Assembly (NCBI GenBank): GCA_041665405.1
Contig: JBAYIZ010000007.1
Span: forward strand, 1 to 55,181
DNA: 55,181 bases
Direction of reading: 5' to 3'
DNA from: Candidatus Magasanikiibacteriota bacterium
GTDB lineage: Bacteria; Patescibacteriota; Patescibacteriia; Magasanikbacterales; GWA2-37-8
Part shown: piece after piece, positions 2,644-55,181 of the stretch
Numbering within the stretch: the first letter of the stretch is position 1
Layout of the letters: each line of letters opens with the position of its first letter
Position numbers and translations under genes: made by a program
Notes under the pieces: generated by a model
Told to the model about the DNA's origin: nothing
The model's database searches: none
The model's input: the letters and a program-made list of their open reading frames with translations, nothing else

Positions 2644-2645
2644 AC

Positions 2646-11955: not shown

Positions 11956-11984
11956 TTGACAAATACGTATAAATAGTATATAAT
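11956..11984 (+). promoter_or_regulatory. Promoter reading into GC-enriched island C
   Basis: TTGACA (11956-11961), N17, TATAAT (11979-11984). The two -35 boxes are part of the inverted repeat TTGTCAAGTG (11932-11941) / CACTTGACAA (11953-11962). Confidence 0.6.
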
Positions 11985-12010
11985 AATCAGTTATTAAATA
12001 ACAAATGGCC

Positions 12011-12049
12011 GCTCCAGCGTGGGTTTAAGTCTTAAACCCACGCTGGAGC
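12011..12049 (+). repeat. 39-nt perfect palindrome (19-bp arms) in the island C leader
   Basis: GCTCCAGCGTGGGTTTAAG-T-CTTAAACCCACGCTGGAGC, followed by two more small hairpins (12055-12070 and 12074-12091). Confidence 0.85.
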
Positions 12050-12132
12050 CGATTCCGATCATGAGATCGGGTGCCAGGGCTTATGTCCTGGTTCCATTGG
12101 ACGGTATAGTTCTTTCACAATTGAGGTGTAAT

Positions 12133-12771
12133 ATGTCACGTCGAATCCTGGTCGTTGAGGACAATGCGAAGCATCTGGATGACGCCCGCGCCTATGCGGC
12201 TGATCTTATCGAGTGTGAAGTGGATTTCGCCACTACGCTCGCTGAGGCGATGGTCTTGCTAACGGCGAACAAGTACGACGGCGTGATCTCGGATGTGTTT
12301 TTCCCGGCGGACGATCAGTCCTCGGCTGACACGTTCGAGAACGCTCTCGCGCTCAACAAGAAGCTCCGTGAAATGCGGATTCACCACGTGTTCAACACGG
12401 CGGGGAACCATCACGGCAAAAAGTATGACGGCTTCTTGCACAAGACGCCAGAACTGATCTGGGTTCCTGGGAGTGAATATCCCGGCGATTTGTTCGTCAG
12501 CTCCGGCATGGTCATCGAAGCATATCCCCATGATAGTGATGGGGAGCATGCGACCAAGCAGTGGCAGGCGGCGTTCCGATATATATTGCTCTCTCTTGCA
12601 TTTCTCGAAATGCCAGACATGGGCCAGGATATCGTTCAAAGCCAGGAGCACCTGGGTGAGAAGTCGGCGCTTCGTTCTTTCCCCTACGGAGATTACGGTG
12701 AGCTGACCGAGAAGTTCTGGGGTTGCATGGACGAGCGCGTTCTTGCGATCTTTGCTCAGTTCAACGCCTAG
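12133..12771 (+). CDS. Orphan receiver (REC)-like domain protein with an uncharacterised C-terminal half (island C)
   Basis: 212 aa from the ATG preceded by GAGGTG. MSRRILVVEDN then DGVISDVFFP resemble receiver beta1 and beta3 acidic residues. No kinase or output domain was recognised. Confidence 0.5.
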   Translation: MSRRILVVEDNAKHLDDARAYAADLIECEVDFATTLAEAMVLLTANKYDGVISDVFFPADDQSSADTFENALALNKKLREMRIHHVFNTAGNHHGKKYDGFLHKTPELIWVPGSEYPGDLFVSSGMVIEAYPHDSDGEHATKQWQAAFRYILLSLAFLEMPDMGQDIVQSQEHLGEKSALRSFPYGDYGELTEKFWGCMDERVLAIFAQFNA

Positions 12772-12795
12772 CTCAACACCTCACAAACACGCCCT

Positions 12796-12824
12796 TGCCC
12801 CGCGGCGTATCAAATAGCGGGGCA
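12796..12824 (+). terminator. GC-rich hairpin after the island C ORF
   Basis: TGCCCCGC-N13-GCGGGGCA. Only a weak T-run follows. Confidence 0.4.
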
Positions 12825-12970
12825 CAATCTTTAGAAAATCATAAATTGGTTTGTTGAAGATTGAATCAAAGAATAATTATATGCACTCACTAAATCAACG
12901 GGTGATGTTTTATTCCCTTGATTTTTGATTTTAAAGTGGTAAAATAGAGCCAGAATTATAACATATATTT

Positions 12971-18142: not shown

Positions 18143-18240
18143 AGAAGTATCATACGAATGTATCTAAGGTAGTATTATTTGATGAATAAGTCAATATTCG
18201 CGTGTCTGATAAAAATATTTATAGTATGGATATACAAATA

Positions 18241-18269
18241 AAAAAAATCCGCTTATTCGGCGGATTTTT
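18241..18269 (-). terminator. Intrinsic terminator of the small basic ORF
   Basis: Minus strand reads AAAAATCCGCCGAATAAGCGGATTTTTTT. Confidence 0.8.
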
Positions 18270-18277
18270 AGTGAGAA

Positions 18278-18352
18278 CTATCTCTTCTTTTTCTTAGCAA
18301 CTTTCTTTTTCTTAGCAACTTTCTTTTTTGCCTTTTTAACTTTCTTTGCCAT
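18278..18352 (-). CDS. 24-aa Lys-rich peptide MAKKVKKAKKKVAKKKKVAKKKKR (below the ORF-track cutoff)
   Basis: ATG is preceded by AGGAGGTG with 7-nt spacing. TAG stop. Own terminator 9 nt downstream. Contains a 19-nt tandem duplication. Confidence 0.6.
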   Translation of the reverse strand: MAKKVKKAKKKVAKKKKVAKKKKR

Positions 18353-18675
18353 ATGATTTTCACCTCCTGTTTTACTCTCATTAAGTTGAGAGCAATTAAT
18401 TTTTCCTACTCGCGAGTGCGAGAAAAAATTTTTTAGAAGTACTTTTTACAAGACAAGCATTGTTGTAAAAAATATTTTCTTCGACCTTGTATATATTATA
18501 GAGCCTTTTGCTAAAAAATGAAATAGTGTCAAGCAAAGTTATGCACAGGTGAGCGATAAAATTATTTTTATTAAATATAAACATAGTATATGTAAAATAA
18601 TTATTATCATTATATTTTTGAGTTATAAATATATTTTTGATAAATAATGTAGTTAGATATTGATATGTAAAATTT

Positions 18676-18705
18676 AATAAAAAATAACACTTCAAGTGTT
18701 ATTCT
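18676..18705 (-). terminator. Intrinsic terminator after the rnc-tRNA unit
   Basis: Minus strand reads AATAACACTTGAAGTGTTATT followed by a T-run. Confidence 0.7.
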
Positions 18706-18709
18706 TTTG

Positions 18710-18781
18710 TGCCCTCGGCAGGAGTCGAACCCACATTCCCAGGTTCGAAGCCTGGTGTCCTATCCGTTGAACGACAAGGGC
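18710..18781 (-). tRNA. tRNA-Arg (anticodon UCG)
   Basis: Reverse complement folds with acceptor GCCCTTG/CGAGGGC, anticodon stem CCAGG/CCTGG, loop CTTCGAA and T-loop GGTTCGACTCC. Confidence 0.85.
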
Positions 18782-18797
18782 AGAATAAATTGTTGTG

Positions 18798-18870
18798 TGG
18801 GACGGCCGGGGATCGAACCCGGGACCTTATCCTTAAGAGGGATCTGCTCTACCAGCTGAGCTACCGTCCC
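18798..18870 (-). tRNA. tRNA-Lys (anticodon CUU)
   Basis: Reverse complement GGGACGGTAGCTCAGCTGGTAGAGC..., anticodon loop CTCTTAA, T-arm CCGGGTTCGATCCCCGG. Confidence 0.85.
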
Positions 18871-40885: not shown

Positions 40886-43426
40886 TTATTTTTCCATTAC
40901 CAGGCCCCATACCCGGTCTGTATTTAATGTTAGTGAAGAGATGCTGGCTCCATTTTTAGCCAATTCGATGCCGTCACCTTCTTTATAATTTGGTTGCCAA
41001 TCAGTAGGTAAGATTATTTGGCTCTCAAACAAACTTTCAATACCAGACTGTTTTTGTATTATTAGCTGATAACGCTGGGCTTGTTTTGAATTAACAATTT
41101 TTTGCCAAGAGATGTTGGCAGTTTGATTTATGTCAGCTAGTTTGAATGGAAGTTTATAAGTAAATTCGATTTCGGTAGTTTGTCCAGGTTCGGTAATTAC
41201 CCAATTGCCGAAAGCAGTCTTGCCAAATTCTTCAGTAATTCGAGTGCCGGTACGTTCATCAATTTTAATTTCTTTTTCTATTTGTTTTAAAAATTCATCA
41301 GCCTTGTATGTTTTTTCTGGTACTTTAAAATTACTTTCTTCGGGCCAAATAAAACCACTAGCGGATACAAGTTCACTATTTTTTGGAACATATAAACGAA
41401 TGTAATCAATATTGGTTGTGCCATATAATTTCTCTTGAGCATTGCCGGTATGAGTACGAGAAATTGTGACAGTATCAGTAATAGTGCCATCATCTTGTAC
41501 CACCGCTTGGTGACTGATGGATTGTTTTATTTTACTATCACTTTTTTCGCCATGGATGTTAGTGTTGAAGACAGCCAAATAATCTTGACGATCATTGGTA
41601 ACTAAAATTTTCCCGCTCCAACCCATTTGTTCTATTGCCAATTGAGCAGTCTGGTCGGTGAAGTAAGCCTGTACTTCTTTTTTTGTCAAAGCCTCTTGTA
41701 AATTTACAATCAACGGCACAAGATCTTTTGGTTCACTATTTTTGAAATGGTCAATAAATTGGGGAGCCAAGTCTGAGAGGATTTGTTTTGGTTTGTTGCC
41801 TTTTTTTTCTGGGCCGGTTTCAACTACTTGTTGGATGGTTGACAGAGCGTTGTCAGCCGAAAGTGTTAATCCTCGTTTTTCATCGGATATCGGACCAGTG
41901 ATTGCTAATAGTCTTTCCAGCACTGAGGCGTTGATGGCGATAACACCATCCACAGTTACATTGCGACTGTGGCGATAAAACCACATCATTTTTTGAGCAC
42001 TAGTAGAAAAATCTGGGAACCAATTCGAGTCCTGGAATTCCCAGCGTTTATTGGTTAGCAACAACGGGGTAGGTGGTTCCAAAAATTGATCCAATTGGCC
42101 TTGTATGTCGTAACTACCACCTGCTGGTACATCTAGACTGATAATTTTACCGTCTTTAACATCCATTACTGCGATACTACCGATAAATCCACCAGTAGGG
42201 CGTAGTTCGCTGGGATTTTGGAAGACTAATAAATAACGACGTTGACCTTGAACGCCAAAAATTTCCTTGATAGCCCCATTTAAATCAGACAAATTTTGTA
42301 AATCATGCAAAACTGCAGTAAAAATAATTTTAAATTCTTTGAATGGTCCCTGATAATCTAGAGGTAAGGAATCCGAGTTTACTGTATCTAAATAACCCAA
42401 CGCCTCCTTGTAGTTTGGTATAGCGGCCGACAGGTGGTTGTTAAAAATTCCCAATCTGATATTGAAAGTACTGCTAGCGTTGATTTGGCTTTCAGCTATA
42501 CCCTTTAGTAAATAGGTGTTGCCTTGAGCGATTTTTTGCCCAGCTAAGAGTAGAGATTGACGACTTCTGACTTCATTGTCTAAAACGGGAACGATAGAAG
42601 CTATTTTTTGTAAAAATTCATAGTTGTTTTCCATAGTGGATATTGCTGTTCCGAAGCTGTTTAAAGCATCGTTAATGGCGGTCTGAGCAGTAGGAATGTC
42701 GGCTTGCATTAGAGCAATAGTCGAATTTTGTAACGACAAAAAACCAGCAGTGCTATCTTGAACAATCTTGCCAGTGGTAAGTTTGATGTTCTGGTAATAA
42801 CTATTGGCCGAGCTAGGTACTATGAGGATAATAATTAAAATTACAGTGGCGGCGATGAGTCGTTGAAAGAAAAAATTTGCTCTAAAAAAGTTTTTTATAT
42901 TTTTACCCAAGTTTATCAATAGTGTATCAATTTTTTGGGTGATAGAATTAAAAGATTTTTTGATTGACCATTTTGCATGTTCACCACATTTTTGTTTTTT
43001 TGGTGTTAACTCTTTAGACAAAACAGAATTTTGGACAGATTCAGATGGAGATAAATTGGCAAATATTTTTTGGTTTATGTCTCCTGGAGTAATGGTTTTA
43101 TTGGATTGAATTTCTTGTTTAATTTTTTCGTAAGCGGCGTTGAAATCTAAAAATTTATTTTTTTCTGGAGAAATTGTGGCTACATTGTGCCAGGTTTGAG
43201 TAGTGTCTTTTTTTAGATTCACAACATGGGTCGAAGCGGTAGGTGAGTGTGAAACGTGATGAATAAAAAACTTGATCGGGGCGGCTGTAATAGGCGTTGA
43301 TTTGATTTGAACAAGCGAAGCTAAATACTGGCCACAGGTGGATTTGTTATGTCCAGGTTTATCACAAAAAGCACAACGACGGAGTTGTGGTCTCTTTTTG
43401 TTGAACAATTTATTTATTCGCGACAT
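40886..43426 (-). CDS. DUF4012-like surface protein with an N-terminal CCHC zinc knuckle
   Basis: 846 aa. CAFCDKPGHNKSTC (C-x2-C-x4-H-x4-C), one TM, then ELRPTGGFIGSIAV, which is typical of DUF4012. Confidence 0.6.
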   Translation of the reverse strand: MSRINKLFNKKRPQLRRCAFCDKPGHNKSTCGQYLASLVQIKSTPITAAPIKFFIHHVSHSPTASTHVVNLKKDTTQTWHNVATISPEKNKFLDFNAAYEKIKQEIQSNKTITPGDINQKIFANLSPSESVQNSVLSKELTPKKQKCGEHAKWSIKKSFNSITQKIDTLLINLGKNIKNFFRANFFFQRLIAATVILIIILIVPSSANSYYQNIKLTTGKIVQDSTAGFLSLQNSTIALMQADIPTAQTAINDALNSFGTAISTMENNYEFLQKIASIVPVLDNEVRSRQSLLLAGQKIAQGNTYLLKGIAESQINASSTFNIRLGIFNNHLSAAIPNYKEALGYLDTVNSDSLPLDYQGPFKEFKIIFTAVLHDLQNLSDLNGAIKEIFGVQGQRRYLLVFQNPSELRPTGGFIGSIAVMDVKDGKIISLDVPAGGSYDIQGQLDQFLEPPTPLLLTNKRWEFQDSNWFPDFSTSAQKMMWFYRHSRNVTVDGVIAINASVLERLLAITGPISDEKRGLTLSADNALSTIQQVVETGPEKKGNKPKQILSDLAPQFIDHFKNSEPKDLVPLIVNLQEALTKKEVQAYFTDQTAQLAIEQMGWSGKILVTNDRQDYLAVFNTNIHGEKSDSKIKQSISHQAVVQDDGTITDTVTISRTHTGNAQEKLYGTTNIDYIRLYVPKNSELVSASGFIWPEESNFKVPEKTYKADEFLKQIEKEIKIDERTGTRITEEFGKTAFGNWVITEPGQTTEIEFTYKLPFKLADINQTANISWQKIVNSKQAQRYQLIIQKQSGIESLFESQIILPTDWQPNYKEGDGIELAKNGASISSLTLNTDRVWGLVMEK

Positions 43427-43513
43427 CTTAAAATTTTGGTGATTGTTTAACTACTATATTATACACCTTTTTAGGCTGTCGTGCACCTATAAAAAACGGT
43501 AGTTATCCACTTT

Positions 43514-44632
43514 TTATTTGGTTTCATTATAAATTTGAAGAGTTTGAGTGGCCGTCTTTACCCATGAGTATTTTTGTAGAGTTTTTTGTCCTTTTTCGAT
43601 CAGATTTTTACGAGTGTCATTATCTTTAATCACCAAATTAGCCGCTGACGTAATTGAGTGAGGATCGTCAGGGTTAAAATATATGGCCGCCTCCTCTAAT
43701 ATCTCGGGTAAACAAGTCCGATCGGAAGAAATTACCGGCAAATCATATTGCATTGCTTCAAGAGGAGGTAACCCAAATCCTTCGTAGAGACTTGGGAAGA
43801 CGTAGAGAGAAGCGTTGCGATAAAGTTCTGGAAGTTCGTTGTCTGGGACAAAATCAGTCAAAATAATGTCTTTAATATTTTTTTGTTCTATGTATTTTTC
43901 TAATTGATGATAAAAATAATTTTTCTTTCCAGTCAAAACTAAATGATAAGTATGTCCATGTTGTTTGCAAAAAATTTCCCAAGCATCTACCAGTTTAAAC
44001 AAATTTTTATGAGGGTAAGCTACTCCAACGTACAGCCAGTATGGTTTGTTTATTTCATATTTTTTGTAGACAGAAAACGGAGCCTCGGCCATGGTTTTTT
44101 CAAGAGGAGATAAATATGTTGTGACAATTTTTTTATGATCAATTTTTAGAGTTTGAACAATATCTTGTTTGGTAAATTCACTGATGGTGATAATTTTATT
44201 AGCCTTTTTTACTGCATGGTTAAGAGTAAATCTGAACATTTTGTTTTTGATCCAATACCATATTGGTCCGAGCGTGCTCGCATGTCTAGTAGGAAAATGT
44301 AGAAGCAGAAGATCATGTATAGTGACCACAAATTTTTGATTATAAAAAAGCGGGACATTCCAATGAGGAAAGTGCATCAGGTCAACTTTTTCATTTTTTA
44401 TAATGTATGGAAAATAAATTTGTTCAGCCCAGCCATACCATCCAATATCGGCCAAAACTTTTTTAAATCTTAAATTCGTAGGATTATAATCATCCCAATT
44501 TTCCTTACGCAAAAATATCGCATACTCGTTTTGTGAATCAATTTTTTCTAGGTTGGCGATCAGTTGTTCTATGTATCGTCCCAAACCACCTTGCTTGGGT
44601 CCAAGCATGCGCGCATCAATTCCAATCCTCAT
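43514..44632 (-). CDS. Glycosyltransferase family 1 (GT4-type)
   Basis: 372 aa. C-terminal EGFGLPPLEAM motif. Confidence 0.8.
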   Translation of the reverse strand: MRIGIDARMLGPKQGGLGRYIEQLIANLEKIDSQNEYAIFLRKENWDDYNPTNLRFKKVLADIGWYGWAEQIYFPYIIKNEKVDLMHFPHWNVPLFYNQKFVVTIHDLLLLHFPTRHASTLGPIWYWIKNKMFRFTLNHAVKKANKIITISEFTKQDIVQTLKIDHKKIVTTYLSPLEKTMAEAPFSVYKKYEINKPYWLYVGVAYPHKNLFKLVDAWEIFCKQHGHTYHLVLTGKKNYFYHQLEKYIEQKNIKDIILTDFVPDNELPELYRNASLYVFPSLYEGFGLPPLEAMQYDLPVISSDRTCLPEILEEAAIYFNPDDPHSITSAANLVIKDNDTRKNLIEKGQKTLQKYSWVKTATQTLQIYNETK

Positions 44633-44667
44633 AATTATTATGTGGTTTATCTTTTTATAATACTATA

Positions 44668-44791
44668 GGTCAAACAAATATTAATTTTCGCCGCGCGAAT
44701 TGTCCGAAGCACCGAGAATTAAACCAAGCTGTCTGGAAAACCTCCAATTCGGTGCAAGTCTGAGCACAAGAAAATTCATATTTGTTTGACC
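44668..44791. repeat. Intergenic hairpin element E2 (124 bp)
   Basis: GGTCAAACAAATATTAATTTTC / GAAAATTCATATTTGTTTGACC (one mismatch) plus an inner stem GCACCGA(G)AATT / AATTCGGTGC. Confidence 0.7.
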
Positions 44792-44846
44792 GTATAAACA
44801 ACGGTACGAATTGAACCATAAATAGTATAACAGAGATATCCCCAAA

Positions 44847-44875
44847 TTGCCAAAATCAATTTTTTGGCATATAAT
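44847..44875 (+). promoter_or_regulatory. Promoter of the MgtE-N/CBS - NRAMP pair, with a palindromic spacer
   Basis: TTGCCA, N17, TATAAT. TGCCAAAA / TTTTGGCA 8-bp arms span the -35 and spacer. Confidence 0.5.
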
Positions 44876-44896
44876 AAAGCCGTCTAAATATATTTT

Positions 44897-46111
44897 ATGC
44901 CATATCTCAGTCGTCTATTAAACAGTAAAGTCAGTGATAGTGCCGACACGGTGATTGGTCGTTTGGAAGATGTGTTGATCAGAGTACGGCCTGGTGAGTA
45001 TTCTCCTTTGGAGTATGTGGTTATCAAAAAACGTCATCAGAGGAAAAGAGTCATCATCCCATATGAGGCGATTGAAAATTTTAGTAGCGAAGAAGTTTCT
45101 TTGCGTACACTTTTTTCAAAAATAAATTTTTTAGAGCACGAGCCAGATGGTTTTGTTCGTCTGAATCGTGATGTAATGGATCAACAAATAGTGGATGTGG
45201 CTGGCGCGCGAGTAGTTCGTGTCAATGATCTACGGATTGGTGATTTTGAAGGTAAAATGTGCATTCTGGGAATTGATGTAAGTTTCGGCGGATTGTTACG
45301 TCGTCTTGGGATGTCTTGGATGGATTTTTTGGGCGTCATGAAAGTGAACTTGATTGATTGGCGCAAAGCTCAACCGGTTGAGGGTGTATTAAAATTGGAT
45401 AGTGTGTCCAAGGATTTGACCAGACTTCATCCCGCTGACATTGCCAACATCGTAGAGGATTTAAGTGCTAAACAAGGCAGTAATCTGGTATTATCACTAG
45501 ATAAAAATATGGCAGCACGTGTATTTGAGGAAATAGATCCTGAGATTCAAAAATTATTGATTTCTCAACTAAGTCCTGAACATGCGGCACGTATCAGTGA
45601 GCGTATGTCAATTGATGAGTTAGTAGATTTGATTCAATCTTTGCCAGAGCATCAATCAAAGCAATTGTTGAACTTTGTTGAACAAGATCGCATGAAAAAG
45701 GTAAAAAAATTATTGAGCTATGAGGATGATACAGCGGGCGGTTTGATGTCTACTGATTTTCTCGCTGGTTTACCAGATGATACTATCGCCGCAACTATTG
45801 AAAAAATTCGTAAACTTTCAGATAGTTTTCGTTCGTTAAATTACGTGTATATTATTGATGAAAAGGGAAAGTATAAAGGTGTAATTTCTTTTAGAAAATT
45901 ATTGATTTCTGATAAAAGGGAAGTTTTGAAGGATGTGATGAAAAAAAATATTCATTTACCGGTTTTATATCCTACTCAATCGATAAAAAGTGTGGCTCAT
46001 TTGATGACCAAATATGATTTGAATTCTGCTGCCGTAGTTGATCAAGAAAATAAATTTTTGGGAGTGGTCGCTGTCGACGATGTGATGCGAGTTTTAGTAC
46101 CAAATGCTTAA
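44897..46111 (+). CDS. Soluble PRC-barrel + MgtE-N + CBS-pair protein (no membrane domain)
   Basis: 404 aa. Central region LHPADIANIVEDLS...ARVFEEIDPE resembles the MgtE N-domain. The C-terminal tandem CBS is like the MgtE cytosolic part. No TM segments. Confidence 0.65.
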   Translation: MPYLSRLLNSKVSDSADTVIGRLEDVLIRVRPGEYSPLEYVVIKKRHQRKRVIIPYEAIENFSSEEVSLRTLFSKINFLEHEPDGFVRLNRDVMDQQIVDVAGARVVRVNDLRIGDFEGKMCILGIDVSFGGLLRRLGMSWMDFLGVMKVNLIDWRKAQPVEGVLKLDSVSKDLTRLHPADIANIVEDLSAKQGSNLVLSLDKNMAARVFEEIDPEIQKLLISQLSPEHAARISERMSIDELVDLIQSLPEHQSKQLLNFVEQDRMKKVKKLLSYEDDTAGGLMSTDFLAGLPDDTIAATIEKIRKLSDSFRSLNYVYIIDEKGKYKGVISFRKLLISDKREVLKDVMKKNIHLPVLYPTQSIKSVAHLMTKYDLNSAAVVDQENKFLGVVAVDDVMRVLVPNA

Positions 46112-47384
46112 TTTTATGCAAAATGATGTTGTAAAAGAATCGAGAAGAGTGAAGCTTTGGGCTAGGATCTTATTAATAAGTAGTGTTATTGGTCCAGGAA
46201 TTATTGCTGGTACTGCCGATAATGACGCTGGTGGAATTGCCACTTATTCGGTAGCTGGTGCTCAATTTGGGTATCATCTGATTTGGGTTTTATTTGCTAT
46301 TACTTTTGTATTGGTGATTACTCAAGAAATGGGGTCACGTCTCGGAATAGTTTCTGGCAAAGGACTGGCCGCTTTGATTCGAGAAAACTTTCCTTTTAAG
46401 GCAACATTTTTTATTATCTCTTTGAGTTTTATCGCCAATTGGGCCAATGTTTTGGCCAACATTTCTGGTATATCAGCCGTGGCAAATATTTATAATATTC
46501 CCAATTGGTTATTTGTTTTGAGCTCGGCTAGTTTGGTTAGTTGGTTGGTAATATCAGGTAATTTTAAAAACATTCAGAGGATTTTTCTTACTTCATCAGC
46601 GCTATATTTGGCTTATGTTGTCGCTGGTTTTATGAGTCACCCAGATTGGTCAGCGGCGTTGAAATCCATTGTAGTGCCATCTTGGATTCCTACACAAGAT
46701 TTTCTATTTATGGCTATCGCTCTTATTGGTACCACAGTGACCATTTGGGGACAGTTTTTTATTCAATCATATTTTGCAGAAAAGGGTGTGCGCACTCAGG
46801 ATTTGGGTTTGGCAAAATTGGATATTTGTCTGGGCGCATTTTGGACGAATTTTGTAGCTTTTTTTATTATTATAGCTACTGCGGGGACATTGTATGCGAA
46901 CGGTATAACAATAAATGACGCAGCCGATGCGGCACGTGCATTGGAACCGTTTGCGGGATCACTAGCAAAGCATTTGTTTGCTTGGGGGCTGTACAATGCC
47001 TCAATGCTTGGGGCTGGAGTAGTGACTATTTCTACTGCTTATATTATTACTGAAGCTTTTGGTTGGGAAGGAAAAGTTAATGCTGGTTTCAAGGAGTCGT
47101 CTGCATTCTATAAAATCTTTTTGTTTTGTATTTTTTCTACTGCTTTGATTGTACTAATACCAAATTTTCCAATAGTAACTGTTTTGGTTGCTTCACAAGC
47201 CTTAAACACATTCGTGTTGCCGGTGTTATTCTTTTTCTTGTTGAGACTTTTAAATCGCAAGGATATTATGGGACAACATCGCAATGGTAAGATTATGAAT
47301 ATCGCGGCTTGGGTTTCTATTGTCGGATTAACAGTATTAAATTTAGTTTATTTTGTGTATTTGATTATTGGGTTTTTTGATTAG
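46104..47384 (+). CDS. NRAMP-related transporter with a non-canonical metal site
   Basis: 426 aa, about 11 TM. TM1 region GPGIIAGTADNDAGGIATY replaces DPGN, and GTTVTIWGQF replaces the MPH-containing motif. 8-nt overlap with the upstream gene. Confidence 0.7.
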   Translation: MLNFMQNDVVKESRRVKLWARILLISSVIGPGIIAGTADNDAGGIATYSVAGAQFGYHLIWVLFAITFVLVITQEMGSRLGIVSGKGLAALIRENFPFKATFFIISLSFIANWANVLANISGISAVANIYNIPNWLFVLSSASLVSWLVISGNFKNIQRIFLTSSALYLAYVVAGFMSHPDWSAALKSIVVPSWIPTQDFLFMAIALIGTTVTIWGQFFIQSYFAEKGVRTQDLGLAKLDICLGAFWTNFVAFFIIIATAGTLYANGITINDAADAARALEPFAGSLAKHLFAWGLYNASMLGAGVVTISTAYIITEAFGWEGKVNAGFKESSAFYKIFLFCIFSTALIVLIPNFPIVTVLVASQALNTFVLPVLFFFLLRLLNRKDIMGQHRNGKIMNIAAWVSIVGLTVLNLVYFVYLIIGFFD

Positions 47385-48519
47385 TCGTCAAAATTTGAAG
47401 ATGTTTTTTTGCACTTTCGTTCCAGTTGTATTTAGAGGCTAATTCTGAGCCTCTTTTTATATATTCCTCATATAGTTTGCTGTTTTCAAGAATAAGTTTC
47501 ATTGCTATGGTGAGTTCAGAAACATTATTTGGGTTAATATAATAGGCAGCATTATTTGAAACTTCTGGTAATGAAGAGCGGTTGCCAGTGATGACCGGGG
47601 TACCTATTTTCATCGCCTCAATAATAGGGAACCCAAAACCTTCATAGAAACTTGGGAATACAAATAGATTGGCTTGTGCTAGTAGAGCGGGTTTATCGGC
47701 ATCTGCTACATATCCCAAAAATTTGATGTGGTCACGTAATTTTGAAGAATTGGCACACTCATAAACCAATTTATTTTTCCATCCCGATCCTCCAGCAATT
47801 AATAAATGAAATTTGTCACTCAAATGTTTTGGTAGTTTTTCAAAGGCCTTGATCAGCCCCAATAAATTTTTGCGTGGTTCAATCGATCCTAAAAACAAAA
47901 TAAAATTTTCCGGTAAGTCGTATTTTTTTTGAATAATAGTTTTTTGTAATTTTAGTTTTGGCTCGGAAACATCAAAATTTGGTGAGATACCTGGGTAGAT
48001 TACTAATATTTTGTTTTCTTCTATTTGATAATATTGAATCAAATCCCGTTTTGTATTTTCTGATGGTACGACAATAATATTTGCCTCCTGGCATTGTTTT
48101 TTTGGGTTAACTAATTTATGCCACAGTCGTTGTTTAAAAGTATTAAATTCAGGAAACAACTCAAAAGAAATATCATGAATTGTTAATATATGTTTGGTTT
48201 GTTTATTTAGCGATAAAAAATTGATATTGGGAGAATACCAAATATCAATTTTTTCTGGAAGTAGTTGATTAACGTTTATCAAACCTAAAGCCAACGCTAG
48301 ATTTACAAATTTGTTGGGATAACGGATCGAGATAAAATAAACATTTGGTTGTGACCAGATTAACAAATTTTTATCTGTTTTTTTAAAAGAATTAGAAAAT
48401 AAAAAGTAATTATTATCTTTATCTTCTTTAAAAATAGCGCTTAGCAACTCAAAAGTATACTCGCCAATGCCAGTTTTATTTTTAACCATGAGAGACCTGA
48501 TATCGACACCAATGTTCAT
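47365..48519 (-). CDS. Glycosyltransferase family 1
   Basis: 384 aa. EGFGFPIIEAM motif. Confidence 0.8.
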   Translation of the reverse strand: MNIGVDIRSLMVKNKTGIGEYTFELLSAIFKEDKDNNYFLFSNSFKKTDKNLLIWSQPNVYFISIRYPNKFVNLALALGLINVNQLLPEKIDIWYSPNINFLSLNKQTKHILTIHDISFELFPEFNTFKQRLWHKLVNPKKQCQEANIIVVPSENTKRDLIQYYQIEENKILVIYPGISPNFDVSEPKLKLQKTIIQKKYDLPENFILFLGSIEPRKNLLGLIKAFEKLPKHLSDKFHLLIAGGSGWKNKLVYECANSSKLRDHIKFLGYVADADKPALLAQANLFVFPSFYEGFGFPIIEAMKIGTPVITGNRSSLPEVSNNAAYYINPNNVSELTIAMKLILENSKLYEEYIKRGSELASKYNWNESAKKHLQILTTNQKTQ

Positions 48520-48521
48520 AA

Positions 48522-49625
48522 CTAATTTAAACTATTTTGAAATTGTGTGAAGTGATCGTTGATAAATGATTGAATTTTATTTTTGAATTTATAAGCGGCA
48601 AAATTTTGGGCATGAAGACGGATTTTTTCGCTGTCCCAACAGTAAGGATCAAATTTTGACACGCTATCGAGAAGTGATTCCCATGTTTGTTGATAAAAAA
48701 ACATGCCAGTTTCGTTGGATATGATTGTCTCTGTAGCGCCGCCATATCCGTAGGCAATCACTGGTCGGCCAGCGGCCATAGCTTCGACCGGAGTGATTCC
48801 GAAGTCTTCTTTTTGAGGATGGATAAAGGCTAATGCTCGGCTAAATAAAACAGCTTTTTCACTCTCAGAAATTTTTCCGTAAAATTCAATGTTTGATTTT
48901 GCGATTCTTTTTAGATGTTTAAATTCTGGTCCGATACCAAAAATTTTCAACGGTATATTTAAGCGATTAAAAACTTTTACAACTAAATCCAAACGCTTAT
49001 ATGGCACTAGGCGGCCACCTGCGACATAGTAATCACCAAGCTTGTTGGCAATTTGAAAGCGGTGGGTATCAACAGGCGGGAAAATAATTTCCGATTCGCG
49101 GCGATAATATTTTTTAATTCTTTTTTGAACAGTTTGAGAGTTGGCAATAAAATGATCGACTCGTTGAGTACTCATTTGATCCCAAATACGTAATTGATGA
49201 TTTAACAATGGTAAAATTAACTTAATAAAATAATTACTTTTTAAATCGGACAAATAATTGTTGCCATCTCCCCAAAGAAAACGAGGAGGAGTATGACAAT
49301 ATGAGATATGTAAAGTATCTGGTGAAGTAATAACACCTTTGGCAAAACCACTGGATGAAGAAATAACCATATCATATCCACGCAGATCGTGCTGCTCGGT
49401 GGCCATGGGCATAAAAGGCAAATACCATTGAAAAATATTATTTATGAATGGCATTTTTGACAACCACGACTCTCTGACTTTTTCATGATCCAAATAATTA
49501 ATTTTTATTCGGTCGTGAAATAAAACAAAAATTGGCGCATCTGGCCAAATTTCGTGTAAGGCTTTTAAAACTCTTTCCGCCCCTCCATCTTGCGAAAGAT
49601 AATCATGCACTAGGGCAATTTTCAT
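48522..49625 (-). CDS. Glycosyltransferase family 1
   Basis: 367 aa. EDFGITPVEAMAAGRPVIA motif. Confidence 0.8.
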   Translation of the reverse strand: MKIALVHDYLSQDGGAERVLKALHEIWPDAPIFVLFHDRIKINYLDHEKVRESWLSKMPFINNIFQWYLPFMPMATEQHDLRGYDMVISSSSGFAKGVITSPDTLHISYCHTPPRFLWGDGNNYLSDLKSNYFIKLILPLLNHQLRIWDQMSTQRVDHFIANSQTVQKRIKKYYRRESEIIFPPVDTHRFQIANKLGDYYVAGGRLVPYKRLDLVVKVFNRLNIPLKIFGIGPEFKHLKRIAKSNIEFYGKISESEKAVLFSRALAFIHPQKEDFGITPVEAMAAGRPVIAYGYGGATETIISNETGMFFYQQTWESLLDSVSKFDPYCWDSEKIRLHAQNFAAYKFKNKIQSFINDHFTQFQNSLN

Positions 49626-51043
49626 ACAATCGATCCAGTTTTTCGAATTACAACAAAGGGTGTTTTAATCAAAATAATAAAATCAATGAAGAAATTCCAG
49701 TGTTCAATATAAAAAATATCTAAACGAGCTTCTTCATCAAAGCTCAAATCACTGCGTCCGGAAATTTGGGCCATTCCCGTAATACCTGGTTTGATAGCTA
49801 AAACAGTTTTGTGCCATTTTTCGTATTTATTTACCTCTCTTGGTTGATGAGGACGAGGGCCTACTAAACTCATATTTCCAACCAACACATTAAAAAACTG
49901 AGGTAATTCGTCCAGGCTAAGAAGACGGATAAAACGACCAAAAGGTGTGATGCGAGGATCATTTTTTATTTTATAAACCGGGCCTTGTTTTTCGCTTTTT
50001 TCTTTTATTAATTCTTTTTCTACCTCGATGGCTTCTTGCCCAGATTTTCCAAATTGTTCGCCAGTACAATATTTTTGGTACATAGAACGGAATTTGTAGG
50101 TGAAGAATTTTTTACCTTCTTGTCCGACGCGTTCATTTTTGTAAATAATCGGTCCGCCGGTTTCAATTGAAATTATTAACGCGATAATTAAAAATATTGG
50201 AGATAAAATTATTAAGAAAAATATACTCCAAAATATATCGCTACCTCTTTTTAAAATTCTACCCCAGCCAGTGAGGCGGGTGCGACGGAGTTCAATAATA
50301 GGGATACCAGCGATAGTGGAAATTGCCATATTAGAGGATATCGTAGCAAATAAATCCGCGGAATATTTGAAAGTAATATGGTGTTCATTGGCAAAGTCAA
50401 TGGTTTGTAATGCCTCATCCTCTTTACTTTTTGGATCAGCAAAAATTAGTTCGTCCAAGTCATTTTTTTGTATTTTGGATAATTCATCTTGATTAAAACT
50501 TTTTAAAACACCAACTATTTTGTATCCGAGATAGGGCTTGCTTTCAAGTGTTTGTTGAATTTGGTCGGCTACACTTTGAGTACCGATAATTACAGTGCGA
50601 CGTAAACCAACACCCATTCGATAAAAAAGAATTTTTAATAATCGTAGAATTGTGCGAGCGAGTGAAACATAGATGACAGCCAAAACTCCACTAGCTAAAA
50701 CCAAAAAGCGGGAATCAAATTTTTGTAAAGTAAAAAATACATAAATAGTAATAGCGGCGAATCCAGTGGCGCAGGCAAAAAATACTTTGTTTAATTCTTT
50801 GGCCAATTTGCGGTTGGGGTCGGCGGAATATAATCCTGAAAAAGCAAAAATAAAAATCCACCCGGCAGAGGCAAACAATACAATGGGCCAATAATTTTCC
50901 CAAGACAAATTAAATAAAATAGGGCGAATACTGGTGACTAATCCAGTAAAGCGCAAACTATAAGCTGTAAAACCAGCCAAAATCAACATTAAATAATCCA
51001 AAGGAAGTTGAAGAAAGGCAAATGTGAGCTCAAAACGTTTCAT
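49622..51043 (-). CDS. Polyprenyl-phosphate sugar phosphotransferase (WbaP/bacterial sugar transferase family)
   Basis: 473 aa. N-terminal TM bundle. C-terminal DELPQFFNVLVGNMSLVGPRP signature. Confidence 0.85.
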   Translation of the reverse strand: MKRFELTFAFLQLPLDYLMLILAGFTAYSLRFTGLVTSIRPILFNLSWENYWPIVLFASAGWIFIFAFSGLYSADPNRKLAKELNKVFFACATGFAAITIYVFFTLQKFDSRFLVLASGVLAVIYVSLARTILRLLKILFYRMGVGLRRTVIIGTQSVADQIQQTLESKPYLGYKIVGVLKSFNQDELSKIQKNDLDELIFADPKSKEDEALQTIDFANEHHITFKYSADLFATISSNMAISTIAGIPIIELRRTRLTGWGRILKRGSDIFWSIFFLIILSPIFLIIALIISIETGGPIIYKNERVGQEGKKFFTYKFRSMYQKYCTGEQFGKSGQEAIEVEKELIKEKSEKQGPVYKIKNDPRITPFGRFIRLLSLDELPQFFNVLVGNMSLVGPRPHQPREVNKYEKWHKTVLAIKPGITGMAQISGRSDLSFDEEARLDIFYIEHWNFFIDFIILIKTPFVVIRKTGSIV

Positions 51044-51129
51044 ATTGTTATAATAGCATTCCCGTATAAACGGGAATCATGGGTATATTTTATGCTAAAT
51101 ATGAATGTTCGTCAATTGAAAGATTGTTA

Positions 51130-51158
51130 TTGACAAAATTGCTATTCTTTGTGATAAT
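51130..51158 (+). promoter_or_regulatory. Promoter reading into GC-enriched island D
   Basis: TTGACA, N17, GATAAT. Inverted repeat GTCAAT-N12-ATTGAC overlaps the -35. Confidence 0.5.
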
Positions 51159-51371
51159 TTGATGTTAATCTATGAACTAGATTAAACAGTTCTTTGATAT
51201 TTACCCAGTTTTCTTTTTAGTTTATTTTAGACAAATATATTAAAAAGAAAACTGGGGGGAATTTAACACTTGTAGTGTTTTATTCCAAGGTGAACTATTC
51301 ACAAGCAGGAGCATACGATGAGCAACAGCTCGAAGCATGGCGTCGTGGTTGACAAGATCATCGCTCTTTAG

Positions 51372-51926
51372 ATGGGGTTGGTCGCCGCGTGGAACTGGCT
51401 CATGGTCTTCCTTACGGTCAAGGACCTTCCTCCTAGGTTCCCGCAAGGTTTTCCTTCTGCAGCCATTGCTGCCGAGCACGGCTTCACCGTGCTGAGTGAT
51501 ACCGAACCGAGTGCCGATCTCGACGTGACGAAGCTCTATTTCAGGTCGGTGTTCTGTGACACTCAAGCACGTAGGGTTTCAGGTAGTAGTTTCTGGGAAG
51601 TGTATTTCAATGGAGTCTTTCGGTGTGCACGGCCTTGGGGGTGTCTTGGCCTCTGCGACGCACCGAGACTGTTGGCTCAGATAGATAAGGCCACCGGTTT
51701 CGACATGACCAACGGAGAGGTCTTGCTCCTTGGTACGATCTTGGCCGAAGAAAGAACCGGCCGCCGCGCCGTCGGCTGCCTCAGGACCTGCAAAGGCCCC
51801 GAGAAGAACCCCAAATGGCATTGGGCTTTGGGGTTCTTGTACACGACCAATGATCGGGTTGGGTCGGTTAGATTCACCACATCACCCTATGGCGGCTGCG
51901 CGACCACGATCGTGAGTCGCGAATAG
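51372..51926 (+). CDS. Hypothetical 184-aa protein (island D), preceded in frame by a 17-codon ORF (51318-51371) ending in TAG
   Basis: Third codon positions are predominantly G/C in this frame and less so in the in-register antisense frame. GGAG lies 6 nt before the ATG at 51318. No family recognised. Confidence 0.45.
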   Translation: MGLVAAWNWLMVFLTVKDLPPRFPQGFPSAAIAAEHGFTVLSDTEPSADLDVTKLYFRSVFCDTQARRVSGSSFWEVYFNGVFRCARPWGCLGLCDAPRLLAQIDKATGFDMTNGEVLLLGTILAEERTGRRAVGCLRTCKGPEKNPKWHWALGFLYTTNDRVGSVRFTTSPYGGCATTIVSRE

Positions 51927-51980
51927 TTTCAGAGCATCGCATCAGTCACTTCGGTGCGGCGTGTCTGGACTTGTTTTTCT

Positions 51981-52046
51981 GCCCTCGGCATTTCTGTTCT
52001 CACCAATCGGTGGGGGTAGCAATGTCCGAGGGCTTTGCTATTTTTT
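51981..52046 (+). terminator. Compound GC hairpin plus T-run ending island D
   Basis: GCCCTCGGCAT...ATGTCCGAGGGC with inner CACC-AATC-GGTG, followed by TTTGCTATTTTTT. Confidence 0.6.
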
Positions 52047-52106
52047 AGTTATTTATATGTAAATCAGGATTGACTTTTTGCTCAATTTTAGTTAAAATCC
52101 TATGGT

Positions 52107-52400
52107 ATGCAAATAATATTTGAAAATGACAAAATTGGTGATCCTGAGCGGTTTATTCGTCGTTGTGGCTATGGTCAGCACAAAATGAGAAATGGCGAAG
52201 TTAGCTATGTAAAACGAGTGCACAGTGATTGGTACCCACGATTTCATGTATATATTTCATCTGAAAAAGAAAAGGTTATTTTCAATCTACATTTGGATCA
52301 ACGTCAGCCAGTATATGAAGGTGTGACTGCCCACGCTGGTGAATACGATGGTGTGGTAGTAGAAAAAGAAGCAGAAAGAATAAAAAAATTTGTAATTTAA
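52107..52400 (+). CDS. Hypothetical 97-aa protein
   Basis: Compact ORF abutting adk, with a TTGACT-N17-TAAAAT promoter upstream. No family recognised. Confidence 0.5.
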   Translation: MQIIFENDKIGDPERFIRRCGYGQHKMRNGEVSYVKRVHSDWYPRFHVYISSEKEKVIFNLHLDQRQPVYEGVTAHAGEYDGVVVEKEAERIKKFVI

Positions 52401-52401
52401 T

Positions 52402-53067
52402 ATGTCAAAAAAGATTTTAATTTTTATCGGACCACCAGGAAGTGGCAAAGGTACACAGGCAAAATTGTTGGCGCATAAATTTGGATATATACATTTTTCT
52501 ACGGGTGATTTGTTGCGCGCGCTTGCAGAAAAAAACAATATTGCTTATGATGAAAAAAATGCTTTGGAGGAAATGAAAGATGGGAATTTGGTACCGGATT
52601 GGTTGGTGTATCGTTTGTCTTTTAATGAAATAAAAAATATTTTGGGTGAAAATAAAGGTGTAGTTTTGGATGGTGCGATTCGTAATTTGGAACAAGCGCA
52701 AGAATTTCAGAAATTTTTTGTGGAAAATAATTTGGAAAAAGAAGTGCAAGTAATTGAAGTAAAATTGTCTGATGAAGAAACTATGAATCGTCTGACAAAA
52801 CGCCGAATTTGTGCTAAGTGCGGGGAAATTATTCCTTGGTTGGCGACTACCAAAGATTTGGTTGTTTGTCCAAAATGTGGCGGTGAATTGGTTTATAGAC
52901 AAGATGATAAAATAGAAACTATCCAAAAAAGAATTGAAGAGCAGGGTAATTTGGCACTACAACCGATTGTAGATTATTATAAAAATTTAGATTTGTTGAA
53001 ATCTGTTGATGGAGATCAAACTATTGAATTGGTGGAAAAACAAATTGCAGAGATCGCGAAATCATAA
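52402..53067 (+). CDS. adk: Adenylate kinase (zinc-lid type)
   Basis: GPPGSGKGTQA P-loop. CAKCG...CPKCGG lid. Confidence 0.93.
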   Translation: MSKKILIFIGPPGSGKGTQAKLLAHKFGYIHFSTGDLLRALAEKNNIAYDEKNALEEMKDGNLVPDWLVYRLSFNEIKNILGENKGVVLDGAIRNLEQAQEFQKFFVENNLEKEVQVIEVKLSDEETMNRLTKRRICAKCGEIIPWLATTKDLVVCPKCGGELVYRQDDKIETIQKRIEEQGNLALQPIVDYYKNLDLLKSVDGDQTIELVEKQIAEIAKS

Positions 53068-53076
53068 TTTTATTTT

Positions 53077-53883
53077 ATGGCGTTAATTAAAACACAGCAC
53101 GAAATTGAAAAGATTATTATTGGTTGTAAATTGACCGGTGAAATTTTGGAAAAATTATATAAAATGGTGAAGCCCGGGATGAGTACTTGGGAGGTGGATC
53201 AAATGGCAGAGAGATTGATTGAAGAAGCAGGGGGTCGTCCAGCTTTCAAAGGATTTAAGGGCCACAAAGATGATATTCCATTTCCATCTACTATATGTGC
53301 TTGTGTTAATGAAGAATTGGTACATGGTATTGCGAAGAAAAATTGTATTTTGAAAGATGGTGATATCTTTACTATTGATATTGGGATGGAATGGCCATTC
53401 AAAAAAGGAGAACGTGGATATTTCACCGATACAGCTTATACGGTGGCGGTAGGAAAAATCTCTAAGGAGACAGAAAAATTATTGCGAGTAACTCAGGAAT
53501 CCCTAGAAGCTGGAATAAAAGCCGCTATTCCTGGTAATAGTGTGGCAGATATCGGCAGGGCTGTTGAAAATTATGTAAAATCTCAAGGCAAGTATGGAAT
53601 AATTCGAGATTTGGTTGGGCACGGAGTTGGACATGCTGTGCACGAAGATCCTAGAATTCCAAATTATTATGATCCAAAATTAGAAAAAATAAAAATAAAA
53701 CCTGGTATGGTGTTGGCGATTGAGCCAATGGTTTCGATGGGTGATTGGCGTGTAGACAACAGTCCAGATAATTGGACAATTATTATGGCAGATTCATCGA
53801 TGTGTGCGCATTTTGAACATACGGTTGTGATTACCAAAACTGGGAATATTGTGGCGACACGCCGACCAGGGGAAATAGATTAA
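53077..53883 (+). CDS. map: Type I methionine aminopeptidase
   Basis: 268 aa. DIFTIDIG, GHGVGHAVHE, LAIEPM and HFEHTV metal-ligand blocks. Confidence 0.93.
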   Translation: MALIKTQHEIEKIIIGCKLTGEILEKLYKMVKPGMSTWEVDQMAERLIEEAGGRPAFKGFKGHKDDIPFPSTICACVNEELVHGIAKKNCILKDGDIFTIDIGMEWPFKKGERGYFTDTAYTVAVGKISKETEKLLRVTQESLEAGIKAAIPGNSVADIGRAVENYVKSQGKYGIIRDLVGHGVGHAVHEDPRIPNYYDPKLEKIKIKPGMVLAIEPMVSMGDWRVDNSPDNWTIIMADSSMCAHFEHTVVITKTGNIVATRRPGEID

Positions 53884-53890
53884 TTTATCA

Positions 53891-54070
53891 AATTTCAATA
53901 AATATTTTACCTCTCTCACTATAAAAATATTCGTAAATTTGCGATTCGTTTCACTCTGGCCGTGAACTCGCCTGCGGGCTCAAACAGCACGGCCAGCCAC
54001 GCTTCACTCATCTGCAAATTTTACTCGTATTTTTATCGTTCGTTCGGTTAAAATATTTATTTCAATTTTC
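53891..54070. repeat. Long intergenic hairpin element E3 (about 180 bp), related to E1
   Basis: Imperfect arms AAATTTCAATAAATATTTTACC / GGTTAAAATATTTATTTCAATTT and ATAAAAATA...TTTGC / GCAAATTT...TATTTTTAT. Apical stem GGCCGTG/CACGGCC with loop AACTCG...CTCAAACAG. Confidence 0.7.
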
Positions 54071-54077
54071 TTAGTAT

Positions 54078-54464
54078 ATGAATATATTAGCTGTGGACTT
54101 CGGCACAAAAAATATTGGATTGGGCTGGTGCGATACGGGTATCAATGTGGTTTTGCCATATGGGGTGATTGACAATAAGGATAAAATTAAGGCCAAAAGG
54201 GAATTGGTGGATTTGATCAAGACCGAGAAGATTCAAAAAGTGGTGGTGGGGTTGCCATATACTATGGATGGTAAGGAAAATGAAAACACTAAAAAGATTC
54301 GAGTGTTTGTTGAGGGTTTTGAAAAAGAGATTGGTATTAAAGTGGAATTTTTTGATGAGCGGTTTACTTCTAAACAAGCGGATCGGATGGAGGGTGGGGC
54401 TAGTCGTGATGAAAAGTCCGCGATGGTGTTGCTTGAAAGTTATTTGGTCAAAAATAAGAAATAA
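54078..54464 (+). CDS. ruvX: Putative pre-16S rRNA nuclease / Holliday junction resolvase-like RuvX (YqgF)
   Basis: 128 aa. ILAVDFGTKNIGLG start and VVGLPYTMDG. Confidence 0.85.
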   Translation: MNILAVDFGTKNIGLGWCDTGINVVLPYGVIDNKDKIKAKRELVDLIKTEKIQKVVVGLPYTMDGKENENTKKIRVFVEGFEKEIGIKVEFFDERFTSKQADRMEGGASRDEKSAMVLLESYLVKNKK

Positions 54465-54467
54465 TGT

Positions 54468-54842
54468 ATGTTAAAATATAATTTGAACAAAATAAAAGGT
54501 GAGAAGAATGATGCCTATGTGAGTAATGCTGTTATGGTTTATGCTGATAAGGAAAATTTGTTTGAAGGAACAATTTTAGAGAAATGTGCTCATGATATTG
54601 ATGCGATAATGATTAATTTAAAACCGACAGAAAAAATTCAACGACACAAACATATAACATCTGAAGAAATAGTTTTGGTATTAAATGGTGTTGGATTTAT
54701 TTCAGAAGAAGAAAAAAATATTCCAGTGGAAACAAATGATTTAATTTTTTTGGAAAAGAATAAAACTCACGGGTTCGAGGCTGGAATTGACGGTCTGAAA
54801 GTGATAGTTTTTCATGGTCCACCCATGCATGAGCGGGTGTAA
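54468..54842 (+). CDS. Cupin-domain protein
   Basis: 124 aa. HKHITSEEIVLVLNG...HGFE pattern resembles cupin motifs 1 and 2. Confidence 0.55.
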   Translation: MLKYNLNKIKGEKNDAYVSNAVMVYADKENLFEGTILEKCAHDIDAIMINLKPTEKIQRHKHITSEEIVLVLNGVGFISEEEKNIPVETNDLIFLEKNKTHGFEAGIDGLKVIVFHGPPMHERV

Positions 54843-54851
54843 TTTATAAAT

Positions 54852-55181
54852 ATGTATTCTTTTATTCTGCATCGGACAGATTTTCGCGAGTATGACCAGA
54901 TTATCACTTTGTATACATTTGAAAAAGGGAAAATAGAAGCACAGGCACGCGGTATAAAAAAGATCATTAGCAAAAATTCGGCTTATTTAGAGCCGTTTTT
55001 TTTAGTTGAGGCGGATATTATTCCCGGTAAGGAAATCAATCATCTTACCAAAGTGGTGCCAGTGGTTTGTTATAAAAATATTTTGAATGATTTTAATAAA
55101 ATGATGTTGGTAAAAACAGTATTTAGTTGGTTGTCGGTTTTGATTCGCAACAACGAACCAGATAATAAAATATTTTTATTG
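54852..55181 (+). CDS. recO: DNA repair protein RecO (5' part; runs off the window)
   Basis: The N-terminus MYSFILHRTDFREYDQIITLYTFEKGKIEAQARG is typical of the RecO OB-fold. Confidence 0.75.
   Translation, partial: MYSFILHRTDFREYDQIITLYTFEKGKIEAQARGIKKIISKNSAYLEPFFLVEADIIPGKEINHLTKVVPVVCYKNILNDFNKMMLVKTVFSWLSVLIRNNEPDNKIFLL

Follow-up and report, generated by a model that had tools for sequence, protein, structure and literature searches.

A GC-rich orphan gene interrupted by an in-frame TAG that abuts an ATG, and its relative, a probable target of a diversity-generating retroelement

Island D is a GC-rich single-gene locus (51274-52052) in the genome of a candidate phyla radiation (CPR) bacterium assigned to Candidatus Magasanikiibacteriota. 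It lies in contig JBAYIZ010000007.1 of GenBank assembly GCA_041665405.1, which was analysed as one stretch of 55,181 nucleotides (the window; coordinates refer to its forward strand unless another contig is named). The island has 54% GC, against 37.8% for the window. Its frame opens at ATG 51318, meets an in-frame TAG after 17 codons, and opens again at an ATG directly abutting that stop. We show that the TAG is genuine and, in this genome, an ordinary stop codon. As judged against its only homolog, P0004, it interrupts a longer frame whose start the family shares. P0004 itself is probably the variable protein of a diversity-generating retroelement (DGR). To the likeliest outcome, termination at the UAG followed by re-initiation at the adjacent AUG, which would yield a 184-aa protein, we give about an even chance. 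Island D would thus be either a shortened version of the gene rescued by restart or a young pseudogene.

Island D is, on comparison with its homolog, protein-coding rather than a structured RNA. The length of its open reading frame (ORF; 184 codons, 51372-51926) is marginal evidence in itself, as a stop-free run of at least 184 codons in any frame occurs in 4.3% of dinucleotide shuffles of the island; it is the homolog that establishes the island as coding. HMMER, run exhaustively over 1.84 billion representative proteins, found P0004 (179 aa, E 2.2e-4) as the sole credible relative, and pairwise BLASTP aligns the two at 32% identity across 139 aa (E 1e-13). Within the best block, differences are distributed 13/15/26 over the three codon positions, and the proportion of synonymous differences (pS 0.71) exceeds that of nonsynonymous ones (pN 0.32). 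This third-position excess, together with pS > pN, is the signature of a protein under purifying selection. Different codons encode 31 of the 58 residues identical between the two proteins. P0004 can be aligned to island D in the ORF frame only, and no alternative-frame match was found, including in the middle of the ORF, where codon periodicity is poor. The GC content at third codon positions (GC3) of the island D gene is 0.65, compared with ~0.27 for the host.

By homology, the island D protein is a member of a very small, uncharacterised family of two. Neither protein has a match in Pfam, NCBIfam, PHROG, PADLOC or PDB (by sequence), and a word-indexed search of 5.8 billion proteins returned only the query in each case. 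No further family members were found by tblastn and blastn against phage and plasmid collections, or in scans of viral contigs by DNA pattern and by protein alignment. Scanning metagenomes with TGAANTANTCACNAGCAGGAG gave 10 matches, all of them chance occurrences inside unrelated genes. Two other HMMER matches, P0002 and P0003, are both repeat proteins and were not accepted as relatives. P0002 carries PPC-like repeats and can be aligned to island D (29% identity) and not to P0004; with an hhalign probability of 10.6%, it is a weak lead only.

The start of the homologous gene is shared with island D. P0004 is encoded on six short Logan contigs (L007-L012), of which L007 measures 2.1 kb. There, too, the gene forms a GC-rich island, with 55-64% GC within flanks of 35-40% GC and a GC3 of 0.79, against 0.24 in the adjacent LCP-family gene. 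The flanks in L007 differ from those in the window, which places the family at different loci in different hosts. The sequence preceding the start codon in L007, ACTCACGAGCAGGAGTGTGTGATGAACAAG, matches ATTCACAAGCAGGAGCATACGATGAGCAAC in the window. Common to both are TCAC(A/G)AGCAGGAG, the Shine-Dalgarno (SD) sequence AGGAG, a 6-nt spacer and the start context ATGA(G/A)CAA. The proximal 5' untranslated region (UTR), comprising its last ~55 nt, is conserved, with a local alignment score of 33 against a shuffle maximum of 26; none of 2000 shuffles reaches 33. Within this conserved block, both 5' UTRs hold a stem-loop of the form ACACU-NGU-NGUGU, whose outer stems differ yet still pair; in L007, the counterpart of the window stem-loop at 51258-51286 reads GACACU-GGU-GGUGUC. 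The L007 counterpart of the long AU-rich leader hairpin is shorter, GC-richer and located at the mRNA 5' end, and its sequence is not conserved. Sequence similarity between the two 3' UTRs is not significant (p = 0.18), and their architecture alone is common.

Upstream of the conserved FPS motif, P0004 has 50 residues, the read-through frame of the window 44 and the 184-aa ORF 26. The first 30 codons from ATG 51318, a stretch that includes the TAG, show a GC3 of 0.87 and a GC content at second positions (GC2) of 0.33 and behave as a single frame. P0004 has no stop in the equivalent N-terminal stretch, a region that is the least conserved part of the family. The shared SD, spacer and start context, the longer N-terminus of P0004 and the GC periodicity across the TAG together indicate that the family start corresponds to ATG 51318, and the same comparison marks TAG 51369 as an interruption specific to the island D lineage. 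A preliminary description of the locus, made from the DNA letters, had taken the TAG as possibly interrupting a longer frame, and P0004 bears this out: its start lines up with the first ATG, SD and spacer being the same, and its frame continues without a stop. That description had also named homologs starting at the second ATG, and lacking a conserved frame upstream of it, as the pattern that would speak against it; the sole homolog shows the opposite.

The TAG is not an error of sequencing or assembly, one of the options that the preliminary description had raised. The island is base-for-base identical in the window contig, in ENA ERZ27249449 (121 kb), in JGI 3300037810 and in Logan SRR6484324, four assemblies that may share samples and are perhaps not all independent. 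Elsewhere, the window and the JGI contig (L002) disagree at just two places, a single-nucleotide polymorphism (SNP) at 48949 and a 10-bp deletion at 55080-55089, and the ENA contig differs at three positions within the first 10.9 kb of the window. TAG is also an ordinary stop in this genome: among 37 large ORFs, 27 end in TAA, eight in TAG, conserved genes included, and two in TGA. None of the four tRNAs of the window has a CUA anticodon, and there is no suppressor tRNA there.

Island D has the layout expected of a self-contained single-gene unit, in which a promoter, a hairpin-rich 5' UTR of ~150 nt, an SD, the ORF and two 3' stem-loops would act together, all on the forward (+) strand. The promoter, hairpins, ribosome-binding site, TAG, ATG and ORF given in the preliminary description are all present, and its coordinates are exact (each ruler label being the first base of its line). 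The promoter is of sigma-70 type (TTGACA-N17-GATAAT, 51130-51158), has a TG-extended -10 element (TTTGTGATAAT), matches the consensus at 11 of 12 positions, and is the top promoter-like site within 50900-52300 by promoter scoring. Its motif TTTGTGATA(A/T)T recurs upstream of the homologous gene in L007. An inverted-repeat search places an 8-bp hairpin (51165-51172/51178-51185) where the transcript is predicted to begin, and there it would serve as an mRNA-stabilising 5' stem-loop. Next comes the long AU-rich leader hairpin (51204-51227/51233-51256; inverted-repeat search and folding). Its two arms measure 24 nt each, show 92% complementarity and have a perfect 16-bp stem as their core. The conserved stem-loop (51258-51286), identified by folding and by comparison with L007, pairs GGAAU with AUUCC in its outer part and has AACACU-UGU-AGUGUU as its inner part; in the DNA, AACACT-TGT-AGTGTT occupies 51265-51279 and TTTTATT follows up to 51286. 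The translation-initiation region (51290-51311) combines the hairpin GUGAA-CUA-UUCAC, the heptamer TTCACAA (51298-51304) and the SD AGGAG (51307-51311), which lies 6 nt before ATG 51318. From that ATG, in a start context orthologous to that of P0004, 17 sense codons (MSNSSKHGVVVDKIIAL) lead to the TAG (51318-51371).

The ORF contains a perfect 12-bp inverted repeat (51804-51815/51827-51838; inverted-repeat search). Its left arm falls within a 10-residue insertion relative to P0004 and its right arm encodes the conserved ALGFL; judging by these arms, the insertion looks like an inverted copy of neighbouring sequence. Two stem-loops follow the ORF. The first stands directly after the stop codon (51928-51969) and has a folded counterpart at the same position in L007. 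The second is long, compound and terminator-like (51981-52033, extending with a T-rich tail to 52046); it resembles the GC-rich inverted repeat seen after DGR targets and shares its architecture with L007 1733-1785. The tail after the stem-loops reads TTTGCTATTTTTT. Compared with shuffles, folding gives z = -6.2 for the leader and z = -6.35 for the 3' UTR.

We propose that island D is translated by termination and re-initiation. Ribosomes would load at the conserved AGGAG and ATG 51318, make a 17-residue peptide and terminate at the UAG; some of them would then restart at the abutting AUG (UAGAUG) and produce the 184-aa protein, which lacks the poorly conserved N-terminus. Stop and restart codons are adjacent (TAG 51369-51371, ATG 51372-51374), the upstream ATG is served by AGGAG at 6 nt, and no SD-like motif lies within 20 nt before ATG 51372. 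ATG accounts for four of the 202 codons in the read-through frame, and a neutral nonsense hit would be expected to adjoin a Met codon about 2% of the time. An ATG abutting the TAG is thus unlikely for a neutral hit, which favours a mutation tolerated through restart at the adjacent AUG. The promoter, the SD, the 184 downstream codons and the 3' terminator are all intact. The leader and 3' stem-loops would most likely be mRNA-stabilising and terminating structures, while the conserved stem-loop and the TTCACAA/SD block may form a translation-initiation module for a GC-rich mRNA in a host that otherwise manages without SD sites. Of the four explanations that the preliminary description listed for the TAG, nonsense mutation and termination-reinitiation are both favoured and are mutually compatible; readthrough is unsupported, with TAG serving as the stop in eight of 37 large ORFs and no suppressor tRNA in the window, and sequencing error falls with the four identical assemblies.

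P0004 is probably a DGR target. The last 51 nt of its ORF (L007 1619-1669) are repeated at 1824-1874 with 75% identity, the downstream copy reading GAC AAC AAC TTC AAC AGC AAC where the gene reads GAC AGC CGC TTC AGC GGC GGC. Of the 15 mismatches over 53 compared nucleotides, 10 are at positions where the downstream copy has an adenine (hypergeometric P 2.6e-4). The non-adenine mismatches cluster at the 3' end, as is expected for a pair of initiation of mutagenic homing sites (IMH/IMH*; PMC5758913). Just upstream of this template-like copy lies a promoter with 11 of 12 consensus matches. The adjacent ORF (1787-2143, minus strand), which is partial because it is cut by the contig end, matches NCBIfam DivGenRetAVD ("DGR protein Avd", E 5.5e-8) and Pfam bAvd (E 3.9e-4), although below curated cutoffs (33 against 80 bits for NCBIfam). 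Between samples, L007 shows one SNP in the variable repeat (1650) and one in the template repeat (1867). GC-rich inverted repeats downstream of the variable repeat have been described for DGRs (PMC3240598, PMC5758913), and Guo et al. (2011) reported hairpins with GRNA loops after variable repeats (PMC3240598). Of the stem-loops after the stop in L007, one has the loop GAAA, which fits the GRNA consensus; the loop in the window is AAUC, which does not.

The DGR-target status is not extended to island D. Relaxed blastn of 51651-52050 against the window and the tails of contigs L001 and L028 revealed no repeat. Across ~72 kb (the window, 6.7 kb beyond its end and 9.8 kb before its start), we found no ORF with the YxDD motif of reverse transcriptases among ORFs of at least 150 aa (120 aa in L028), no Avd, and no AAC-rich template-like segment related to island D. 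Template-repeat patterns searched in viral contigs gave no matches at first and then two chance matches. A GC-rich inverted repeat is present just 3' of the island D ORF; it is non-specific, since it is also terminator-like. Because P0004 appears to be a DGR variable-protein gene and no DGR parts lie near island D, we infer that island D is an orphaned relative of a DGR target.

Several observations weigh against these readings. With a single homolog, the N-termini align weakly and do not reveal which codon the ancestor had in place of the TAG, and the absence of polymorphism in the island across the assemblies compared gives no variation for testing selection. GC2 in island D is an unusual 0.52, and the codon-position GC periodicity is gone in codons ~71-105 from ATG 51318 (51528-51632); both would fit relaxed constraint. 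AlphaFold predictions are too poor for assigning a fold or function, with a mean confidence (predicted local distance difference test) of 43.5 from the single sequence and 34.5 from the two-sequence alignment. As for the DGR, L007 ends without a visible reverse transcriptase, its template copy overlaps the Avd-like ORF in antisense at the 3' end of that ORF, which is a non-canonical layout, and the 3' coding end of island D has no similarity to the L007 repeat. Within codons ~71-105, island D also has extra residues relative to P0004.

The main, serious rival to re-initiation is that island D is a young pseudogene. A nonsense mutation at codon 18 would have followed the loss of the DGR context, nothing functional would be made, and the 184-codon ORF would survive merely because stops are rare in GC-rich sequence and little time has elapsed. 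We regard this as a possible though less than probable account. It is consistent with the premature stop relative to the uninterrupted P0004, with the weakness of ORF length as evidence (the 4.3% of shuffles), with the GC2 of 0.52 and the periodicity lost in mid-ORF, with the lack of a reverse transcriptase, Avd or template repeat within ~72 kb, and with the poor structure predictions. Against it stand the direct abutment of the stop on an in-frame ATG, with its ~2% expectation for a neutral hit, and the absence of any second stop or frameshift in 184 codons. The promoter (11 of 12 positions plus TG), the SD and both 3' stem-loops are likewise intact, and the sequence is identical across assemblies.

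A further possibility concerns the origin of the island and its setting in the genome. The host is a CPR bacterium near Ca. Magasanikbacteria, its adk being 49-53% identical to that of the nearest genomes. In the nearest Ca. Magasanikbacteria, secY, a 100-aa ORF, adk and map follow one another with no island, and this 100-aa ORF before adk is unrelated to the 97-aa ORF at the same position in the window. Situated directly 3' of island D, the 97-aa ORF (52070-52400) is preceded by a separate promoter (TTGACT-N17-TAAAAT) and matches no family in Pfam or NCBIfam. SD motifs (GGAG, GAGG or AGGA) precede two of 31 called genes, both GC-rich, as counted over the gene starts of contigs L001 and L028 (window 1-10907 and 41372-55181, plus flanks). 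The host thus seems to initiate translation without SD sites.

GC-rich, SD-led single-gene islands recur in this genome, with at least five in ~72 kb. Besides island D, we find them at 1040-1530 (+), 2644-3250 (-) and 11950-12860 (+) of the window and at 18163-18830 (-) of L001. Their ORFs encode 120, 130, 212 and 155 aa, respectively, with GC3 values of 0.50-0.73 against ~0.27 for the host, and in all four a purine-rich, SD-like motif precedes the ATG. The leaders examined, those of the islands at 1168, 12133 and L001 18163, comprise a TTGACA-type promoter and a hairpin-rich stretch. The GC-rich segments 1168-1530, 12133-12771 and 51318-51926 all have an SD, and exact copies of TTCACAA lie 2-6 nt upstream of the SD of these three unrelated islands (1148-1154, 12114-12120 and 51298-51304). 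The heptamer occurs 15 times in the whole window, against 18.5 expected, and the L007 homolog has CTCACGA at its position. Blastn between the islands, island D included, detects no DNA similarity.

One of these islands, island B, encodes a receiver-domain-like protein of 212 aa whose real start is ATG 12133 (MSRRILVVEDN). It forms a divergent pair with a TrmB-family regulator (window 11102-12771; L023 2952-4642), and its leader contains a perfect 18-bp stem at about 12011-12049. The same pair occurs in a Ca. Kaiserbacteria genome beside a phage-type integrase, and another homolog lies beside an rve transposase. The family of island B occurs widely in CPR, and compared with several of its hosts it too is GC3-rich; its homologs in other CPR genomes have the SD and lack TTCACAA. 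The island beyond the window end contains a GC-rich 155-aa ORF (L001 18163-18630, minus strand) with the SD GAGGAG, a lipoprotein-signal-like N-terminus (…LILGGC) and no Pfam match.

Island D may belong to a group of GC-rich, SD-led single-gene cassettes, mobile or maintained separately, in CPR genomes that otherwise have no SD sites, and still be the remote target of a DGR elsewhere in the genome, a combination that we consider doubtful. It resembles compositionally atypical, horizontally acquired single-gene islets in its GC3 (0.65 vs ~0.27), in its SD within an SD-poor genome, and in the different flanks of the family in different hosts. Unlike such islets, it has no integrase, repeats or tRNA at its borders, no donor lineage appears among the 1.84 billion representative proteins, and GC3 has stayed high in two copies that are saturated at synonymous sites. 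If the cassette and remote-target reading were true, the 5' UTR module and 3' stem-loops would be cis elements that travel with the gene, as a translation module and a retrohoming recognition structure. Should GC3-rich, SD-led genes with strong promoters and structured leaders, set among genes that lack SD sites, prove to be a general pattern, this would matter for the way in which CPR bacteria express foreign or specially regulated genes, and for the question of why the base composition of such genes does not approach that of the host. More novel than the split gene itself are the shared initiation motif and the GC3 that the islands retain in an SD-poor CPR genome, both given here in outline only.

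Control by a leader peptide is improbable. The preliminary description had called the leader attenuator-like; on such an account, the 17-codon ORF would be a leader peptide and the leader hairpins a transcription attenuator of the 184-aa gene. Island D does resemble attenuators and leader-peptide regions in its long multi-hairpin leader (z = -6.2), in a short ORF with a good SD ahead of the main ORF, and in a small hairpin followed by U residues (51265-51286). However, the stem of that hairpin has 6 bp with only two G-C pairs, no terminator is called in the leader, and the U-run is not kept in L007, where it reads UUUCGCU. We found no alternative pairing or antiterminator in the leader and no transcribed leader peptide, Rfam gives no riboswitch or leader family, and the long AU-rich hairpin is without a sequence counterpart in the homolog. 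Moreover, the same start opens a full-length protein in the homolog, so the short ORF is not a conserved device, and the 17 codons bear the GC3-rich coding signature of the rest of the gene. Unlike the short ORF of an attenuator, that of island D would be the N-terminus of the ancestral protein. On present evidence, an attenuator in the leader is not supported.

Still less probable is readthrough or recoding of the stop codon to give a 202-residue protein. The frames before and after the TAG run on without a break, and joining them would give an N-terminus with a 22-residue hydrophobic stretch, IIAL-x-MGLVAAWNWLMVFLTV. TAG nevertheless terminates conserved genes in this genome, none of the four window tRNAs could decode it through a CUA anticodon, and no known readthrough context or structure was identified. 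Least credible of all is a structured non-coding RNA with an incidental ORF: the island is GC-rich in an AT-rich genome, the ORF length is marginal, and the full 891-nt region folds far below shuffles (z = -6.3 and -8.5 on the two strands), but these strong scores arise from the UTR hairpins and mixed composition, the ORF region without those hairpins reaching just -2.1 and -2.6, while Rfam, searched up to E <= 10, yields no credible match for the island (the AU hairpin draws microRNA-type noise at E >= 0.14, and over the window only four tRNAs pass the gathering score) and the homolog differs mainly at synonymous positions, with similarity confined to the ORF frame.

These results provide an anchor and a name for a two-member orphan family; its intact member, from an uncultured lineage, appears to undergo hypermutation by a DGR. 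By itself, the split ORF would be a small case study of a nonsense mutation tolerated through an abutting restart codon. P0004 resembles known DGR target genes, such as mtd of Bordetella phage BPP-1 and those of the CPR DGR set, in its terminal 51-nt repeat, in the AAC codons at mismatches and in its Avd-like neighbour, and in P0004 and island D alike the stop is followed at once by GC-rich stem-loops. Unlike DGR targets, island D has no template repeat, Avd or reverse transcriptase within ~72 kb, its C-terminal end is unlike the L007 repeat, and its protein matches no known target fold or Pfam family. Most target genes in the CPR DGR set are reported to be without a recognisable motif (Wu et al. 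2018; PMC5758913).

The closest parallel to the proposed restart is found in bacterial operons. Translational coupling by termination-reinitiation occurs there at adjacent or overlapping stop and start codons. Island D shares with such couplings its adjacent UAG and AUG, a second start without an SD and an upstream start with a good one. Unlike operon coupling, the arrangement in island D would be specific to one lineage and would split a single ancestral gene rather than join two.

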